NCBI GenBank assembly: GCA_000002445.1
Contig: CP000068.1
Location: 1,544,199-1,608,198, forward strand
DNA from: Trypanosoma brucei
Taxonomy: Eukaryota
DNA length: 64,000 bases
Reading direction: 5' to 3'
Part shown: positions 1 to 62,803 of the stretch, piece by piece
How the letters are laid out: each line of letters opens with the position of its first letter
Position numbering within the stretch: the first letter of the stretch is position 1
Made by a program: the position numbers and the translations under genes
Notes under the pieces: generated by a model
Databases searched by the model: none
The model's input: only the letters and a program-made list of their open reading frames with translations
Told to the model about the DNA's origin: nothing

Positions 1-355
1 TATCTGTCTTAATTCTTCATTCATAATATTTTCGCCCCCACAATTTTATAATCATCCACCCTCATTCACTCACTTACTCACATTCCAATCTTGCTACTTT
101 TCAAGTTCATCTTTTTGTTTCCGCATTCAGGTTTTAACAATATCCTCATACTAATATTTGTATATGCACAGCCACACCACTTTCCTATCACCATTATTGT
201 TACAACGCTAACTAATATTCATCAAATAAATAAAATAAACAAAATAAACAAAATTAGAACATCACTCATTTTTCATACCTTATCTCTCTGTTACTTTACA
301 TCCATCGGCCACCTTCATACGAAGGTTTAAATAATAGCATATTTTCATCGAAAAG

Positions 356-373
356 TGTGAAAATATAACAGAG
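356..373 (-). promoter_or_regulatory. Variant VSG 3'UTR 16-mer (gtgtgaaaatataacaga)
   Basis: It sits just downstream of the VSG stop and resembles gtgttaaaatatatca. Confidence 0.4.
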
Positions 374-396
374 TCGCAAAAATATAGGTAAAAATT

Positions 397-1999
397 TTAA
401 AACAGTAAGGCCGTAAAAACAGCGGTCATCAGAGCCAATTACTTATTGACTAGAAAACTTCCATTTCGGCATTTCTCTGTATCCTTGTCATCCTCACCAT
501 CTTTGTCCTTTCTGAAACCACAAACGGGGGTTTGGCCTGCTGTGTTTTCAGCTTCGCATTTGGCTTTGTCAGTGCCGTGTTTGGTGCACCTGTCTGAAGC
601 AGTTTTTCTCATCTTTCCCTCCTGTTTCTTGAGTTGCTTTTTCTGCTTCTTTTTTGCTCTCTTCACTCAATGTGCACCTTTTCTTTGGTTCTTTTGCTTC
701 GGCGTCCCATTTGCAGGATGGTTTGCACTCTGTGTTTTTGTTTATCCTATTGCATTTTTCTTCGGCTTCTTCTTGGTTTTGTTTATTGTTTTCTGCTGCT
801 ACTGCTGCACCTGGCGCTTTTTGGGATTGCTGCTGTATAGCCATTGCATTCAGCTGCAGGAGGTTTGTTAGGCTTTCATTGAGGCTGGTTAATTGAATCT
901 CTGCCTGCAAAGTAGTGCGTTGCTCATCCTTTAGTGCCTGTTGCTTTTGAGCTGCTTTATCAAGAGCGCTTAGCCATGTCGGCTCCTGTATCGTGTTTGC
1001 CGCACTTACAAACGCTACACATGGACCTGTGCCTCCCGCGTCAGCGCCGTTGCAGTTGCCCGCTGCCCCTGCTGAGCCGACGTATCCTATGTATCCTACG
1101 GCGCCGCCAGTCCCTTTCGGTTCGTATAGCAGCGCCCTAATGCTGCTGCCGGCCTGTGCTATGTCCGTTTGCTGGTTAGCTTTATCGTGGTTGCCTTCGC
1201 TGCTGCAGTGTTCCGTTATTTGTGTCCACGCTGCTAGTGGTTTGCCTTGAGCCCCGAAATCCTGCTCTGTAGCTTGGGTTTTGTAGCGTGCCGCGGCGTT
1301 GTTGCTGGTACTGTCCGAGGCGCATAGACATGTCATGGTTTCTGCTAGTGAATTTTTGCTTGATGAGCCGCTTTTGCTGTTGGTGCCGCAGTGCGCTTCC
1401 CTGGTCGCCCCTGTGCCGGTTAGCTTGAGGTTGACTTTGTTTCCGCCGGGCCCGTATATTGCTTCCTCTAAGGCCGACTTGATTGCGGCGGCAGCGTCGG
1501 CTTCTTCTAAATAGTCTTTGGCTTGGTCCGCTAGAGTTTTCATTAGTTCGACGGTTTTGTTTATTTGCATGTGCAGTGGGCTCGCCGGCTGCGCCGCGAT
1601 CTTGAGTTTCTGTTTTTCTTCTGGAGCTAAATTTTTTAGGTAGTTGGCTGCCTCTTGATACTGTGCCTTTGAGCTTCCCTTGCACTTTTCAGGAATCTCA
1701 GAGTCTCCCGTTGCCGCTTCTCCTGATGTGGTTGTTTTGTCTGCCATTTTTGCAATTGCGGAGAGCTCGCTTAGAATTAAAGCTATGTGTTGTGTTCTAA
1801 GAGCCGCATCCTTCGCTGCCGCAGACGGCTTGTTCTTACTTTGGAGCTTTGTGGCAGCCAGCACCACGTTGCATAGCAGTCCAAATGTTTGTCTGTTTTC
1901 ACCTTTGGTCGCGGTTCCCGCTTCAGTGGCTGCCGCGTACGTTATAAGCAGCAATGCTACCGCCACTACCGCTTTAGTTGGCCTTTGGTCCAATCGCAT
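397..1999 (-). pseudogene. VSG: VSG (A-type N-terminal domain) pseudogene. A frameshift near 569-666 separates the CTD tail, and an in-frame TAA interrupts the GPI signal (..NGSFLVNK*LALMTAVFTALLF*).
   Basis: The 476-aa ORF 569..1999 starts with a signal peptide (MRLDQRPTKAVVAVALLLITYAAATEA) and has the GENRQTFGLLC and ALYGPG..CLCA motifs plus a Cys-rich CTD. ORF 439..666 in another frame carries the C-terminal end. A 16-mer-like 3'UTR element lies downstream. Confidence 0.75.
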
Positions 2000-2162
2000 C
2001 TCAGTTTGTGTCTAGTGCGTTTCTTTCAGCCTGGATCCGTAGGTAAAAGTGTGAGAAAGATGACGGTTGTTGGTTTTTCCGGCATGTTTTTGAAGTACTT
2101 CGCCTTTAAAAGCTTAGGGTGAGCCAGCTGTTCTGGTGCTCGTTATTTTTGACAAAATAACT

Positions 2163-59829: not shown

Positions 59830-61140
59830 ATGTTGCGAAAGATCAACCCGAGTGTGCCTCCACAGTGCCGATGGTGTAACCCGCAACATGCAGCGATAGG
59901 GCCAACAATACAAGTACAAGCAGCCCCAACTGTTGCGACACGCACTCTTCAGAGGACCTCCGAACCGACCAAATGTACGGAATGTGATGACACATACCAG
60001 TGCCGCTCGAGTGCTGTAACGCACATGGTAAACAAACATGGCTTTGTGCGAGCTGATGCCCTCCGGAGGATCAAATACGGCGATGCAACACCTGCAGTGG
60101 ATATCCCCCCGGAGCCCCCTCCAGTGGCGGCGATCGTTCCTCTACCATCGAGCACACGAGTCCATATGAGACCGCAGGTGCTTTACTGTATCCTCTGTGC
60201 TTTCAAATTCGCAGTGCCAGGCCGACTATTACACCACCTTAGAACAATACATGGCATAAGCAGCGGTAGTTGCCGCGTGAAAAGGGGGCGAGAAAACGAG
60301 GACTCATTGCAAGGAGATGGTAGCGTCCCAGCAGCGCCAGCCCCTCAGGATACACGGAAGCTGCCGTTTCAATGTGACCTGTGCGTGGTGAGCTTCGGTA
60401 CACGTTCTTCCCTGTCACTACACAAGAAATTCAAACATAAGAGCATAGTGACGGAGGACGGTACCGTGGTGGTGGTGCAATTCCCTCGTAAGCGTGCCCG
60501 TGAGGGAAACGTTGACGTCCCGGGGAAGGGAGAGGTGCAGTGTGGTGTGTGCCAAAAAGTGCTCAGTTGCAGGGACTCCCTCATCCGACACTGTAAGGCT
60601 TTCCACAAAGGTGAGGGAGTCGAGCTTAAATGCAGCAAAAGCACAAAATTGTGTGCCACTGATTCCCCGCATACAAACACATCCATGTTGGTGTGCCCGA
60701 CATGCGGAAGGCAGTGTGCTAGCAAAACTGGCCTCACCATACATCAAAAGAAGATGCGCGGTATGAAGGTAGAGCACGCTGCTACCAGCCAACGCGGCCA
60801 CTGCGAAGAAACGTCGCTGCACTTGATGAGCTGTCCCGGTTTGAAGGATTTACGTGTCAGGTTTGCGGTAGAAGGTGAGTGTGTGTGTGTGCAGGATGTA
60901 TGTTTTTCTAAGAGGCTGGCGCAGTTTCTCATTGCGGCTGAACGGAGCCGGCTGCAGGTGAAGTCTTCACCTAATGTAACAGTCATACAACCCACTCTCC
61001 CTTCTACAACTTCCCCCCTTATTGCCGAGTGTGGAGCTAGCAGGAAAAGCACCGGACGCAGGAATAGTCCAGACACCCTCAGAGACAGAGGGGGTATGCA
61101 ATCAACAAGCAACAGAAACAGAAAGAGGGAGAGAGAATAA
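59830..61140 (+). CDS. ingi ORF C-terminal segment with C2H2 zinc fingers (L1Tc/ingi-type nucleic-acid chaperone region)
   Basis: CTECDDTYQCRSSAVTHMVNKHG; LYCILCAFKFAVPGRLLHHLRTIHG; FQCDLCVVSFGTRSSLSLHKKFKHK; CGVCQKVLSCRDSLIRHCKAFHKG; CPTCGRQCASKTGLTIHQKKMRG. Confidence 0.65.
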   Translation: MLRKINPSVPPQCRWCNPQHAAIGPTIQVQAAPTVATRTLQRTSEPTKCTECDDTYQCRSSAVTHMVNKHGFVRADALRRIKYGDATPAVDIPPEPPPVAAIVPLPSSTRVHMRPQVLYCILCAFKFAVPGRLLHHLRTIHGISSGSCRVKRGRENEDSLQGDGSVPAAPAPQDTRKLPFQCDLCVVSFGTRSSLSLHKKFKHKSIVTEDGTVVVVQFPRKRAREGNVDVPGKGEVQCGVCQKVLSCRDSLIRHCKAFHKGEGVELKCSKSTKLCATDSPHTNTSMLVCPTCGRQCASKTGLTIHQKKMRGMKVEHAATSQRGHCEETSLHLMSCPGLKDLRVRFAVEGECVCVQDVCFSKRLAQFLIAAERSRLQVKSSPNVTVIQPTLPSTTSPLIAECGASRKSTGRRNSPDTLRDRGGMQSTSNRNRKRERE

Positions 61141-62199
61141 TAAACGAATAACAAAAATCAAAACAAAAGGATTGCTAATTGACATCTTTGGGAGAGTCTG
61201 GGGTGTGGGGACTTCTCGCCCCATCTGCTGTATTCCGTTCAAATGCGGAGCTACAACAAAAAATTATAGAGGGTGTGTTAGGCTTAATAAAAAAACGGAG
61301 ACTCTGCCACAGTCGCCAGACCGATAGCATCTCAGGGCTCTACGGTGATGGCTGATGGCCGCGCCAGTGGGGGGAAACGCTCACCAAGGCACGAAGAAAA
61401 TTCCAAAAAAAAAATAGAGTTGAATTAACTACTGTTGCGATTCTATCCATGGAAGTGGCTTCTCATGGTTGCTTTGGTAGAGACAGTTTGAAAAATTGAA
61501 TCACTACATTTTTGTTTCTTTTTCTTTACTCTTTGATCTCGAAACTGTCATTTGATTCCCCTTATTGGGCGCATGGCTTTGCTCGGCTATCATCGCTATT
61601 GTTACGCAAATAACGTTTGGCCTCAGCCGCCAGTTTGAATGCCTTTTGATCTTTTTTTAACTTACACTTATTTACGGTTTGGATTATAATCGCAGAAATA
61701 TAATCAAAACTACCTACCCTTCCCCCACATTTCTTATCGGTGTCTATCGCTACTTCCATAGAATAGACTTTAATACTCTATAAGTCGATTCTATTTGAAG
61801 TTATAGGTTATTAACGGTTGCTGTATTCGCATTAAAACTTCAGCTAAGTCATCTACAGTGTTCATCCTGTGCGAAATATGTAGAGCAATCTCTTCCTCCT
61901 TTTGTATTATATCACAATATACTTTGTAGTCTAGACTATTCTATGGTTGTATTCTGTTATTTTCGTTATTAAACATATTGAGTGGCTTCTGTGGATTAAA
62001 TGCCGACCCGTAGGCTTGTCCACTGGGCACTGTATTTCTTCATTATCGCCCTCTTCAACATTTTCTTGTGTATAATTGTACACATCGTCATGTGTTTGAA
62101 GTTGCACATATTACATCTCCAACTATCTCCAGCATTTACTCCAACCCCACACTTTAAATTGCTTTAACTACTTCTATTTTGATTACCTATTTAGGTCTC

Positions 62200-62640
62200 A
62201 ACACTCTTATTATAATATTAGCTTATACGCACTCACAACACTCTTCTATTATTATTATTATTATTATTATTATTATTATTATTATTATTATTATTATTAT
62301 TATTATTATTATTATTATTATTATTATTATTATTATTATTATTATTATTATTATTATTATTATTATTATTATTATTATTATTATTATTATTATTATTATT
62401 ATTATTATTATTATTATTATTATTATTATTATTATTATTATTATTATTATTATTATTATTATTATTATTATTATTATTATTATTATTATTATTATTATTA
62501 TTATTATTATTATTATTATTATTATTATTATTATTATTATTATTATTATTATTATTATTATTATTATTATTATTATTATTATTATATTTGTATACACACA
62601 CCAACAACTCACTCCTATCATTTTTACTGCTACTCATAAA
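62200..62640 (-). repeat. 70-bp repeat with a hyper-expanded (TAA)~111 tract (62251-62583) plus a second partial unit
   Basis: ttagcttatacgcactcacaacactcttct is followed by ~333 bp of perfect (att)n, then atatttgtatacacacaccaacaactcactcc. Confidence 0.9.
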
Positions 62641-62803
62641 ATTAACAAAATATACAAATTATAAAATTTTTAAAAAGTCACTCCCTTTTCATTCCCTGAA
62701 ACTTTACGTCTTTACGCTCATAGGGCAATGTCACAAATTTGTAACCAACCTTTTCACATTTTTTAGTTTTAAACAGCTCGATTTTAATATTTCTTTCAAA
62801 ATG

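Follow-up and report, generated by a model that had tools for sequence, protein, structure and literature searches.

In the window, the whole 64,000-nt stretch of Trypanosoma brucei DNA analyzed here, silent surface-antigen (VSG) genes are arrayed head to tail on the minus strand, and a conserved block of ~36 bp lies between the end of a cassette and the 70-bp repeats that open the following one. This motif is not a lone element: It is the best-conserved block of a conserved spacer of ~110–130 nt with the order 16-mer, A-rich spacer, TATGAAAGTGGCCTATGGATGTAAAG, motif, T-rich tract, and 70-bp repeats, which, judged from its sequence, looks like an ordinary trypanosome RNA-processing region. We found no earlier description of the spacer element in the searchable literature. 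With a confidence that falls somewhat short of even, we favor the reading that the spacer is an intergenic RNA-processing module, in use or relic; a neutral relic of the array framework is nearly as likely.

A motif-only nhmmer profile run over the 64 kb identified 14 full and two truncated copies at the 18 boundaries with 70-bp blocks. All of them lie on the minus (sense) strand at cassette boundaries, one per boundary and never in tandem; the full copies have E-values from 1e-9 to 3e-4, and beyond the boundary copies neither strand contains a match better than E = 8.9. The truncated matches retain either the 3′ half (7131–7160) or the 5′ half (18508–18531) of the motif. An earlier note on this DNA had reported a conserved motif at nearly every cassette boundary, and all nine ranges it gave overlap profile matches; its consensus equals the one we derived independently (AATTAGAATATCACTCATTTTTCATACCCTATCACC, + strand). 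The placement it described, between the preceding 16-mer and the 70-bp repeats, was likewise borne out, as the motif starts 67–111 nt past the 16-mer and ends 42–94 nt short of the first 70-bp unit's core. Its count of 17 boundaries has to be raised to 18, while the frequent occurrence stands. A 19th VSG 3′ end at 30342–30357 has neither the junction element nor a 70-bp block directly after it. The motif copies are old and diverged: Single copies differ from the consensus at 3–12 of 36 positions, the mean pairwise identity is 0.66 versus 0.73 for the 16-mer, and the literal 36-mer consensus finds a single match at ≤3 mismatches (53514–53549). The 16-nt core ACTCATTTTYCATACC matches five times at ≤2 mismatches versus 0.14 expected. 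Of the 14 full copies, leave-one-out profiles recover 13, each at its own boundary (E 8e-8 to 0.085), and miss the one at 62.7 kb. Among the cassettes, the boundary module alone is common, and the other 51 kb have almost nothing in common: By blastn, the 70-bp blocks have a mean of 12.0 partner loci, the junction 3.5, the 3′UTR 2.0, the C-terminal 300 nt 1.0, and the rest of the cassettes (51 kb) 0.14.

The junction cores, all on the minus strand, are given here with block 3, motif, and T-tract in brackets in this order. The first two are located at 218–323 (294–323, 252–287, 226–251), with a 16-mer-like sequence upstream at 355–370, and at 4052–4158 (4129–4158, 4088–4122, 4062–4087), with the 16-mer at 4225–4240. 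At 7098–7180 (7151–7180, 7134–7150, 7108–7133) the motif is truncated to its 3′ half. The cores at 10213–10309 (10280–10309, 10238–10273, 10213–10237) and 14215–14313 (14284–14313, 14242–14277, 14215–14241) follow, the next 70-bp unit of the latter being only partial. At 18470–18555 (18526–18555, 18508–18525, pyrimidine tract 18480–18507) the motif is truncated to its 5′ half. Further cores lie at 22646–22755 (22726–22755, 22684–22719, 22656–22683), 26658–26755 (26726–26755, 26684–26719, 26660–26683), and 29356–29435 (29406–29435, 29367–29400, T-tract very short), the last coming after a VSG C-terminal fragment and not a full gene. They continue at 33031–33148 (33119–33148, 33077–33112, 33041–33076), 42215–42334 (42305–42334, 42263–42298, 42235–42262), 46198–46306 (46277–46306, 46235–46270, 46208–46234), and 49946–50043 (50014–50043, 49973–50007, 49956–49972). 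The motif nearest to the consensus is found at 53477–53584 (53555–53584, 53513–53548, 53487–53512); it is followed by the core at 57697–57796 (57767–57796, 57722–57757, 57697–57721) and by that with the weakest copy at 62641–62739 (62710–62739, 62668–62703, 62641–62667).

Two boundaries on the minus strand are devoid of the element. At 36060–36140 the 16-mer (36141–36156) is followed by a spacer and then directly by 70-bp repeats; motif, T-tract, and block 3 except for its first ~13 nt are deleted. The boundary at 39186–39267 is a 93% identical copy of this module, and one deletion event therefore lies behind both. In total, four of the 18 boundaries have the element deleted or truncated, and one of these follows a VSG ORF of 518 aa that looks intact; the element is therefore dispensable for keeping a cassette. 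As a contrast case, the 16-mer of a VSG pseudogene (30342–30357) is followed by an alternative pyrimidine-rich 3′ flank without junction blocks (30142–30341, minus strand).

To judge by the order of its sequence elements, the geometry of the spacer fits the coupled trans-splicing and polyadenylation of trypanosomes. The 3′ end of the motif is a branch-point-like TTCTAAT, in which the branch-position A (alignment column 309) is present in 15/15 copies; a T-rich polypyrimidine tract (PPT) comes directly after it, and the first AG occurs roughly 10–40 nt past the tract end. This order would correspond to the anatomy of a normal trypanosome intergenic RNA-processing region, in which the AG may be used as spliced-leader acceptor and the motif may contribute as a binding region for splicing factors or as a branch-site region. 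With an acceptor in this place, the poly(A) site of the upstream VSG would fall just past the 16-mer, which would give the canonical short VSG 3′UTR. The motif would then belong, as its best-conserved block, to an "array-type" VSG 3′ flank, and the spacer would span from the mature-mRNA end of one VSG to the 70-bp repeats of the next, beyond the stretch that VSG gene conversion normally copies. Such a module may matter today in the arrays, silent as they normally are, instead of being left over from an ancestral tandem array that was transcribed.

With PPTs defined as in Kolev 2010 (PMC2936537), the longest PPT between the 16-mer and the 70-bp core starts at the motif 3′ end in 13 of 16 junctions; because the 16 junctions are homologous, these tracts are not independent events. 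The junction PPTs have a median of 21 nt versus 14.1 ± 1.1 in shuffles, with 0/300 shuffles reaching the observed value. Functional PPTs genome-wide have a median of 18 nt (Kolev 2010, PMC2936537), and tracts within 200 nt ahead of the VSG start codons in the window measure 13–28 nt. The first AG after the tract lies at a median of 158 nt past the 16-mer, which in the canonical genes of the window ends about 58–60 nt past the stop codon (ORF and 16-mer coordinates). Given the VSG221 3′UTR of 76 nt (PMC5698767), we infer a poly(A)-to-AG distance of ~140 nt; the published median is 142 nt (IQR 123–178; Kolev 2010, PMC2936537). The flanks without junction blocks, at 30.3 kb and in T. equiperdum contig L001, contain a PPT plus AG at +94 to +139 past the 16-mer, and these two cases suggest that a PPT plus AG is what is needed at this position. 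Moreover, array VSG transcripts accumulate upon TbSAP knockdown once silencing is relaxed (PMC8034637), so processing signals there can be used. These results are in keeping with the proposal in the earlier note of a distinct boundary or processing signal, which gains some support from the tract and AG geometry after the motif.

The RNA-processing reading has to be viewed alongside several opposing observations. With this base composition, chance alone would be expected to place an AG within ~15 nt, and YNYURAY is a degenerate pattern; trypanosome branch sites are not known to follow a strict consensus. Substitutions in the T-tract show no pyrimidine bias (C vs purine OR 0.63, p = 0.2) and so do not point to selection on pyrimidine content itself. 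Because VSG arrays normally stay silent and most conversions into expression sites end within the 3′ end of the gene, the selective rationale is weak; the loss or truncation at four of 18 boundaries also counts against the reading. Downstream of the VSG221 poly(A) site, a swap to tubulin sequence kept the preferred site (Ridewood 2017).

A neutral framework relic, which we regard as possible and only slightly less likely than the RNA-processing module, would be ancestral inter-cassette DNA with no present sequence-specific function: The spacer would seem conserved only because it lies outside the conversion-replaced segment (70-bp repeats to gene 3′ end), whose "cargo" has anciently diverged, and the framework would merely be as old as the array. 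Neither the distances of the adjacent 3′UTR nor those of the first 70-bp unit correlate significantly with the junction distances (Mantel r from −0.22 to 0.15), and the history of the junction is therefore decoupled from both neighboring cassette ends. This decoupling argues for a relic, as do the age of the copies (median junction p-distance 0.38, closest pair 0.23), the four affected boundaries, the lack of a pyrimidine-preserving bias in the T-tract, and the arrangement at 29.4–30.4 kb: Here, a VSG with a different flank lies upstream of a C-terminal fragment that retains 3′UTR, junction, and 70-bp repeats, which looks like framework retained and cargo exchanged. However, conservation is block-wise and not uniform, the top 36-column window comprising the 3′ two-thirds of the motif and the T-tract start (column-permutation P = 0.03). 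Despite the AT-rich background, G/C columns are kept better in the motif than in the rest of the junction (identity 0.55 vs 0.42, p = 0.016; A/T columns 0.72 vs 0.60, p = 0.005), the mean shared run length exceeds that of column permutations (P < 0.001), and 19 internal gap runs in block 3 plus motif compare with 43 and 37 in the flanking spacers. In conservation the motif is also roughly on a par with two elements of known function, the 16-mer and the 70-bp core, and the junction is common to more cassettes than the 3′UTR (blastn). Part of this counter-evidence could stem from poor alignability of the low-complexity spacers.

As a boundary element at the DNA level, a binding site for a chromatin, replication, or recombination factor could mark or insulate cassette boundaries in silent arrays, for example by limiting conversion tracts to single cassettes or by organizing compact subtelomeric chromatin. 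The strictly single copy per boundary with fixed orientation and fixed order relative to the 70-bp repeats, the non-repetitive, information-rich block with conserved G residues, its absence from the telomere-proximal VSG flank L001 and the 30.3 kb flank, and the lack of RNA structure in the junction element would all suit such a site. Yet nothing positive favors it, the literature searched yielded no such factor or motif, an identity of 0.66 with 3–12 mismatches per copy makes a poor specific binding site, and four of 18 boundaries have lost the element, so that we consider it improbable. Under concerted evolution, the junction would hitch-hike between gene 3′ end and 70-bp repeats, with spill-over conversion tracts homogenizing it and lengthening the homology for inter-cassette exchange. 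Boundary modules do align as single contiguous HSPs of 250–750 bp running from 70-bp repeats through the junction to C-terminal coding sequence, and module 35846–36534 was clearly copied as a unit with 38977–39663 (93% identical). We nevertheless deem this quite improbable: Pair-specific long identical tracts are absent (GENECONV-style maximum run P = 0.73), all pairs except this one duplicate diverge by at least 23%, and there is no co-ancestry with the flanking 3′UTR or first repeat unit. Conservation shows no monotonic fall-off from the 70-bp repeats, the nearest segment, TAGTTAG, having an identity of 0.43. RAD51-dependent recombination in T. brucei, reported to depend on the length and homology of the substrate (PMC1904282), would also be poorly served by a junction with ~34% divergence. 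The diverged first or terminal 70-bp unit raised in the earlier note was rejected by profile, alignment, copy-number, and string tests and is very hard to credit, even though the motif adjoins the repeats and inspection shows the short strings TGATAGG, TGAGTG, and TATTNTAAT to be common to both, with order kept. A 70-bp profile from 28 units of the window matched no junction, even at E ≤ 1000 with filters off (nhmmer). In gap-tolerant local alignment to the tandem 70-bp consensus, the motifs scored no better than dinucleotide shuffles (z = −1.0, sense), whereas badly degenerate genuine first units reached z = 13.9. The motif is never tandem, and the published dataset of expression-site 70-bp repeats, in which the 70-bp core string occurs 115 times, contains none of its substrings; the motif is thus not the terminal unit of the canonical repeat.

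Among known systems, the 70-bp (about 76-bp) repeats, which form the 5′ boundary of the T. brucei VSG cassette, share with the motif the inter-cassette location, the conservation among otherwise unrelated cassettes, and the fixed orientation. They are, however, tandem with a TRR run, whereas the motif is single per boundary, lacks this run, shows no detectable sequence relationship to them, and lies upstream of them, outside the unit copied in conversion. The 16-mer TGATATATTTTAACAC and the 9-mer of the VSG 3′UTR are, like the motif, short conserved blocks downstream of VSG coding sequence, and 16-mer and motif are similarly conserved in the array. In contrast to the 16-mer, the motif starts past the expected poly(A) site; it would therefore be outside the mature mRNA and unable to act in mRNA stability as the 16-mer does, and the telomere-proximal VSG flank has a 16-mer without the motif. 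For the RNA-processing module that we prefer, the counterpart is the trypanosomatid PPT plus AG trans-splice acceptor coupled to upstream polyadenylation (PMC2936537). In known signals of this kind, no sequence ahead of the tract is conserved, whereas the array has a specific block of ~36 nt there; moreover, the arrays are normally silent, the acceptor is putative, and substitutions are not biased toward preserving pyrimidines. The same T-rich tract followed by AG is present, with tract medians of 21 versus 18 nt and poly(A) distances of ~140 (inferred) versus 142 nt. The non-array flanks of L001, which leads into GTAGG/TAGTTAG-type subtelomeric sequence and not into 70-bp repeats, and of 30142–30341 differ in sequence and contain neither block 3 nor the motif; apart from the 16-mer, the two are not significantly similar to one another (z = 0.5). 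At the same place past the 16-mer, both carry a pyrimidine tract plus AG.

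Across the window, the minus strand carries open reading frames (ORFs) of 275–518 aa arranged head to tail, on which we found Pfam VSG_B and VSG C-terminal domains and one of which is 96% identical to a VSG of T. brucei EATRO1125. The intergenic stretches contain 70-bp-type repeats with periods of 54–86 bp, some of them with long (TAA)n runs, as well as copies of the 16-mer, a conserved element of the VSG 3′UTR. Taken together, the ORFs with their VSG domains, the repeats and the 16-mers identify the window as a silent subtelomeric VSG array whose sense strand is the minus strand. 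For about 40 years VSG cassettes have been defined by two flanks: the upstream 70-bp repeats and the downstream conserved gene end with its 16-mer. In the window, the sense order is VSG, 3′UTR with 16-mer, a conserved motif of about 36 bp, 70-bp repeats and next VSG: A third conserved piece sits between the two classical flanks of the cassette and is kept about as well as both.

Several cassettes have peculiarities of their own. At 7324–8748 (−), a 474-aa ORF in VSG position has, unlike its neighbours, no Pfam match at E ≤ 0.001. A variant 70-bp array at 45909–46188 has a period of 54 bp (5.2 copies, 97% identical), and its units lack the TATAATAAGAGCAG tail. Two other 70-bp blocks enclose perfect + strand runs, (ATT)45 at 10062–10196 and (TAT)113 at 62247–62585, both of which read (TAA)n in sense. 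Two adjacent ORFs of 312 and 436 aa at 58891–61140 (+), which run opposite to the VSGs, encode an RNase H domain together with a C2H2 zinc finger; the pair resembles part of a non-LTR retrotransposon, which we take to be ingi-like, inserted inside a cassette. A 254-bp segment occurs with 92% identity in two cassettes (20725–20975 and 61162–61415), and since one copy directly adjoins the retroelement ORFs at their end, the segment probably represents the terminus of a retroelement or a RIME-like piece. Two cassettes that are otherwise unrelated share, in their upstream non-coding regions, a 571-bp segment with 98% identity (2600–3170 and 12590–13160). Outside the boundaries, the window has just one more sizeable similarity, between the upstream regions 25112–26147 and 55779–56709, which are 72–76% identical over about 1 kb.

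The motif at the cassette boundaries is real: Profile and leave-one-out searches recover its copies there, and an independently derived consensus agrees with the one proposed in the earlier note, single copies differing from it at 3–12 of the 36 positions. The literal 36-mer consensus finds one match in the window at ≤3 mismatches, and a 16-nt core, allowed up to two mismatches, finds five where 0.14 would be expected. With the nine examples of the earlier note as its seed, a profile gave 16 full-length and two partial boundary matches; a motif-only profile gave 14 full and two truncated copies, every one on the sense strand and at a boundary, with no other match better than E = 8.9 anywhere in the 64 kb. 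Leave-one-out profiles recovered 13 of the 14 full copies. The motif-profile search yielded one copy per boundary without a second match nearby, and neither the boundary nor the motif profile matched outside the boundaries in the window, including where a relation to the 3′UTR was sought. The claim that most boundaries bear the motif holds, with the total of 17 boundaries raised to 18 that have 70-bp blocks. The location claimed for it, between 16-mer and 70-bp repeats, likewise stands: The motif starts 67–111 nt past the 16-mer and ends 42–94 nt before the first 70-bp core.

Alignment of all 18 boundaries revealed a fixed sense order of parts. The 16-mer is followed by an A-rich spacer of variable length (31–75 nt), by a conserved block that we call block 3 (TATGAAAGTGGCCTATGGATGTAAAG), by the motif (GGTGATAGGGTATGAAAAATGAGTGATATTCTAATT) and by a T-rich tract; often GGATATTAGTTAG comes next, and a TRR run with the first 70-bp unit completes the series. 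We refer to the conserved stretch between 3′UTR and 70-bp repeats as the junction. The two boundaries without motif, near 36.1 and 39.2 kb, both lie in a duplicated boundary module that is 93% identical and therefore represent one deletion event. The duplicated module itself (35846–36534 and 38977–39663) comprises 70-bp repeats, 3′UTR and C-terminal coding sequence (about 380 nt), was duplicated independently of the N-terminal domains and is alone in having lost the junction element completely.

The possibility raised in the earlier note that the motif is simply the terminal 70-bp unit is contradicted by profile, alignment and published repeats alike. The unit itself, a TRR run followed by GATAGGAGAGTGTTGTGAGTGTGTATATACGAATATTATAATAAGAGCAG, has no consensus match in the junctions. 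A profile (HMM) built from 28 canonical and degenerate units of the window gave no match in the 16 junctions even at E ≤ 1000 with filters off, and its scores are equal for real and shuffled junctions. Gap-tolerant local alignment (Smith–Waterman) to the tandem 70-bp consensus in sense yielded z = −1.0 for the motifs and z = −0.7 for whole junctions, while three badly degenerate genuine first 70-bp units, used as positive control, gave z = 13.9. The strings common to motif and 70-bp unit (TGATAGG, TGAGTG and TATTNTAAT) are not above chance, and the published set of expression-site (BES) 70-bp repeats, in which the repeat core occurs 115 times, contains none of the motif strings. Tandem head-to-tail copies of the motif were not found, and TRF gives no array at the motif positions. 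A diverged 70-bp unit is accordingly a highly improbable identity for the motif. An interstitial relic of telomere repeats, suggested by the TAGTTAGGGT-like ends and by AGGGTGATAGGGT within the motif, was also rejected: TTAGGG stands at just two of the 16 junction ends (26654 and 42213), and TAGGGT is enriched simply as a piece of the motif consensus. A structured non-coding RNA was likewise dismissed, RNAalifold predicting no base pairs in sense or antisense and the window having no Rfam match at the gathering threshold.

We then considered the junction in terms of RNA processing. Kolev 2010 defined the polypyrimidine tract as the longest pyrimidine run broken only by single purines, reported a median tract of 18 nt with T preferred, and found a median of 142 nt (IQR 123–178) from a trans-splice site to the upstream gene's poly(A) site (PMC2936537). 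With this definition applied between 16-mer and 70-bp core in 16 junctions, the longest tract begins at the 3′ end of the motif in 13 of them, and its median length is 21 nt versus 14.1 ± 1.1 in shuffles, none of 300 reaching the observed value; in the same cassettes, the 200-nt stretches upstream of VSG start codons have tracts of 13–28 nt. An AG follows the tract in 15 of the 16 junctions, at a median of 158 nt past the 16-mer. In canonical genes of the window the 16-mer ends about 58–60 nt after the stop codon, and the VSG221 3′UTR measures 76 nt in total (PMC5698767), from which, by analogy with VSG221, we infer a poly(A) site about 16–18 nt past the 16-mer and hence a distance of about 140 nt from poly(A) site to AG. 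The last seven bases of the motif, TTCTAAT, fit the general branch-point pattern YNYURAY, and all of 15 copies have the A at the branch position. The junction thus has the anatomy of an ordinary intergenic processing region and is set apart by unusual conservation of the block where the branch site would lie.

Several observations weigh against this reading. Chance alone would be expected to supply an AG and likewise a match to YNYURAY; the 16 junctions, being homologous, are not independent; and substitutions in the T-tract occur without pyrimidine bias. The arrays are normally silent; knockdown of TbSAP causes array VSG transcripts to appear (PMC8034637). The element is lost or truncated at four of the 18 boundaries, and exchange of what lies downstream of the poly(A) site in VSG221 left the preferred site unmoved (PMC5698767), which also counts against a role in processing. 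For these reasons we propose only tentatively, and at rather less than an even chance, that the junction may be an intergenic trans-splice/polyadenylation module, as its sequence features suggest.

Two cases show that a VSG 3′ end need not be accompanied by the junction element. In the window, the VSG ORF at 30572–31972 is broken by an in-frame stop 57 codons short of its natural end near 30395, and a perfect 16-mer (30342–30357) follows that end. The flank of this pseudogene (30142–30395 region) contains no junction blocks and is pyrimidine-rich; its tracts lie at +74 and +110, its AGs at +94 and +139. About 400 nt beyond it lies a VSG C-terminal fragment (29560–29950) with the usual 3′UTR, junction and four 70-bp units; pseudogene and separate fragment together look like what an insertion or replacement would leave behind. 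The only external locus compared is a 3.15-kb T. equiperdum contig (CZPT02001120.1, here L001), whose VSG has a 16-mer followed by a different pyrimidine-rich flank with a 27-nt tract at +82 and an AG at +112, and the motif was not found in this flank. Both junction-less flanks thereby still supply a tract and an AG at similar distance. Toward the contig end the L001 flank (3040–3153) passes into GTAGG/TAGTTAG-type sequence and terminates in GTAGGTAGGTAGGTAGGAATGGAGGGGGGGTAGTTAG, which suggests a telomere-proximal gene; a run of N interrupts the upstream 70-bp repeat of this contig. Homology between the two flanks seemed convincing by eye and in MAFFT and was rejected when the score fell to z = 0.5 versus shuffles once the 16-mer was removed, so that we claim only similar composition and organization. 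When metagenome and prokaryote collections were scanned for the 70-bp core, one chance match came up, in a sequence without a match to the boundary profile.

The conservation and history of the copies bear on the other readings of the junction, all statistics coming from one 64-kb window and the contrast from a single external contig. Mean pairwise identity is 0.73 in the 16-mer, 0.53 in the spacer, 0.57 in block 3, 0.66 in the motif, 0.68 in the T-tract and 0.69 in the first 70-bp core. Conserved columns cluster, the best 36-column window taking in the 3′ two-thirds of the motif together with the first part of the T-tract (P = 0.03 by column permutation), and motif columns are better kept than the rest of the junction (G/C p = 0.016, A/T p = 0.005). 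In an all-against-all blastn of the window, the DNA common to cassettes is one contiguous module only, composed of C-terminal coding sequence, 3′UTR, junction and 70-bp repeats (on average 1.0, 2.0, 3.5 and 12.0 partner loci, respectively), which aligns pairwise as single HSPs of 250–750 bp with 65–72% identity; the other 51 kb (N-terminal coding sequence, upstream regions of about 1–1.5 kb and the retroelement) average 0.14 partner loci. Because sharing is confined to this boundary module, the conservation of the junction is more than a residue of whole-unit tandem duplication. It is possible, if somewhat doubtful, that the junction is a neutral relic of the cassette framework. Its copies are old (median p-distance 0.38, closest pair 0.23), and a GENECONV-style maximum-run test found no pair-specific long identical tracts among them, so that recent gene conversion does not account for their similarity. 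Co-ancestry with the upstream 3′UTR or the downstream first repeat found no support in Mantel tests, in which junction distances were uncorrelated with either; the history of the junction is therefore uncoupled from both neighbouring cassette ends. That the junction hitch-hikes by concerted evolution we consider quite improbable. The motif might also be a protein-binding DNA element, which we regard as unlikely. Slightly less probable again is a sequence-specific cis-element, bound by a dedicated protein at every cassette boundary of the silent archive, that could serve as insulator, as delimiter of conversion tracts or as organizer of chromatin or replication. Were it true, the modular behaviour of the archive, one cassette at a time, would be encoded and not a by-product of the 70-bp repeats alone.

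A working trans-splice/polyadenylation module, the reading we prefer, would account for correct 3′ ends of array VSG transcripts when silencing is relaxed, and likewise when an expression site receives two cassettes copied together. Framework DNA alone would tell array-type from telomere-type VSG flanks, providing a marker for the history of archive positions, and would bear on whether conversions ever pass the classical cassette limits. Either way the result is incremental and not surprising, and we class the element as a flank or intergenic processing region that is conserved in a well-studied gene array. In the searchable literature on 70-bp repeats, VSG 3′UTRs, array silencing and switching we found no description of a conserved block between 16-mer and repeats, nor any occurrence of motif strings in the full texts searched; an earlier description is possible.

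Among known elements, the 16-mer/9-mer class of the 3′UTR differs from the motif in position and context: The motif starts 67–111 nt past the 16-mer, which by analogy with VSG221 would be beyond the mature mRNA, and it does not occur in every context, being missing after the 16-mer of two VSGs, the only such cases compared (the L001 gene and the window gene ending at about 30395). To the 70-bp repeats the likeness is positional only, the motif lying 42–94 nt 5′ of each block's first unit, at the cassette's 5′ limit. With the trypanosome trans-splice acceptor/polyadenylation region, the junctions have in common the feature of a T-rich tract and an AG.
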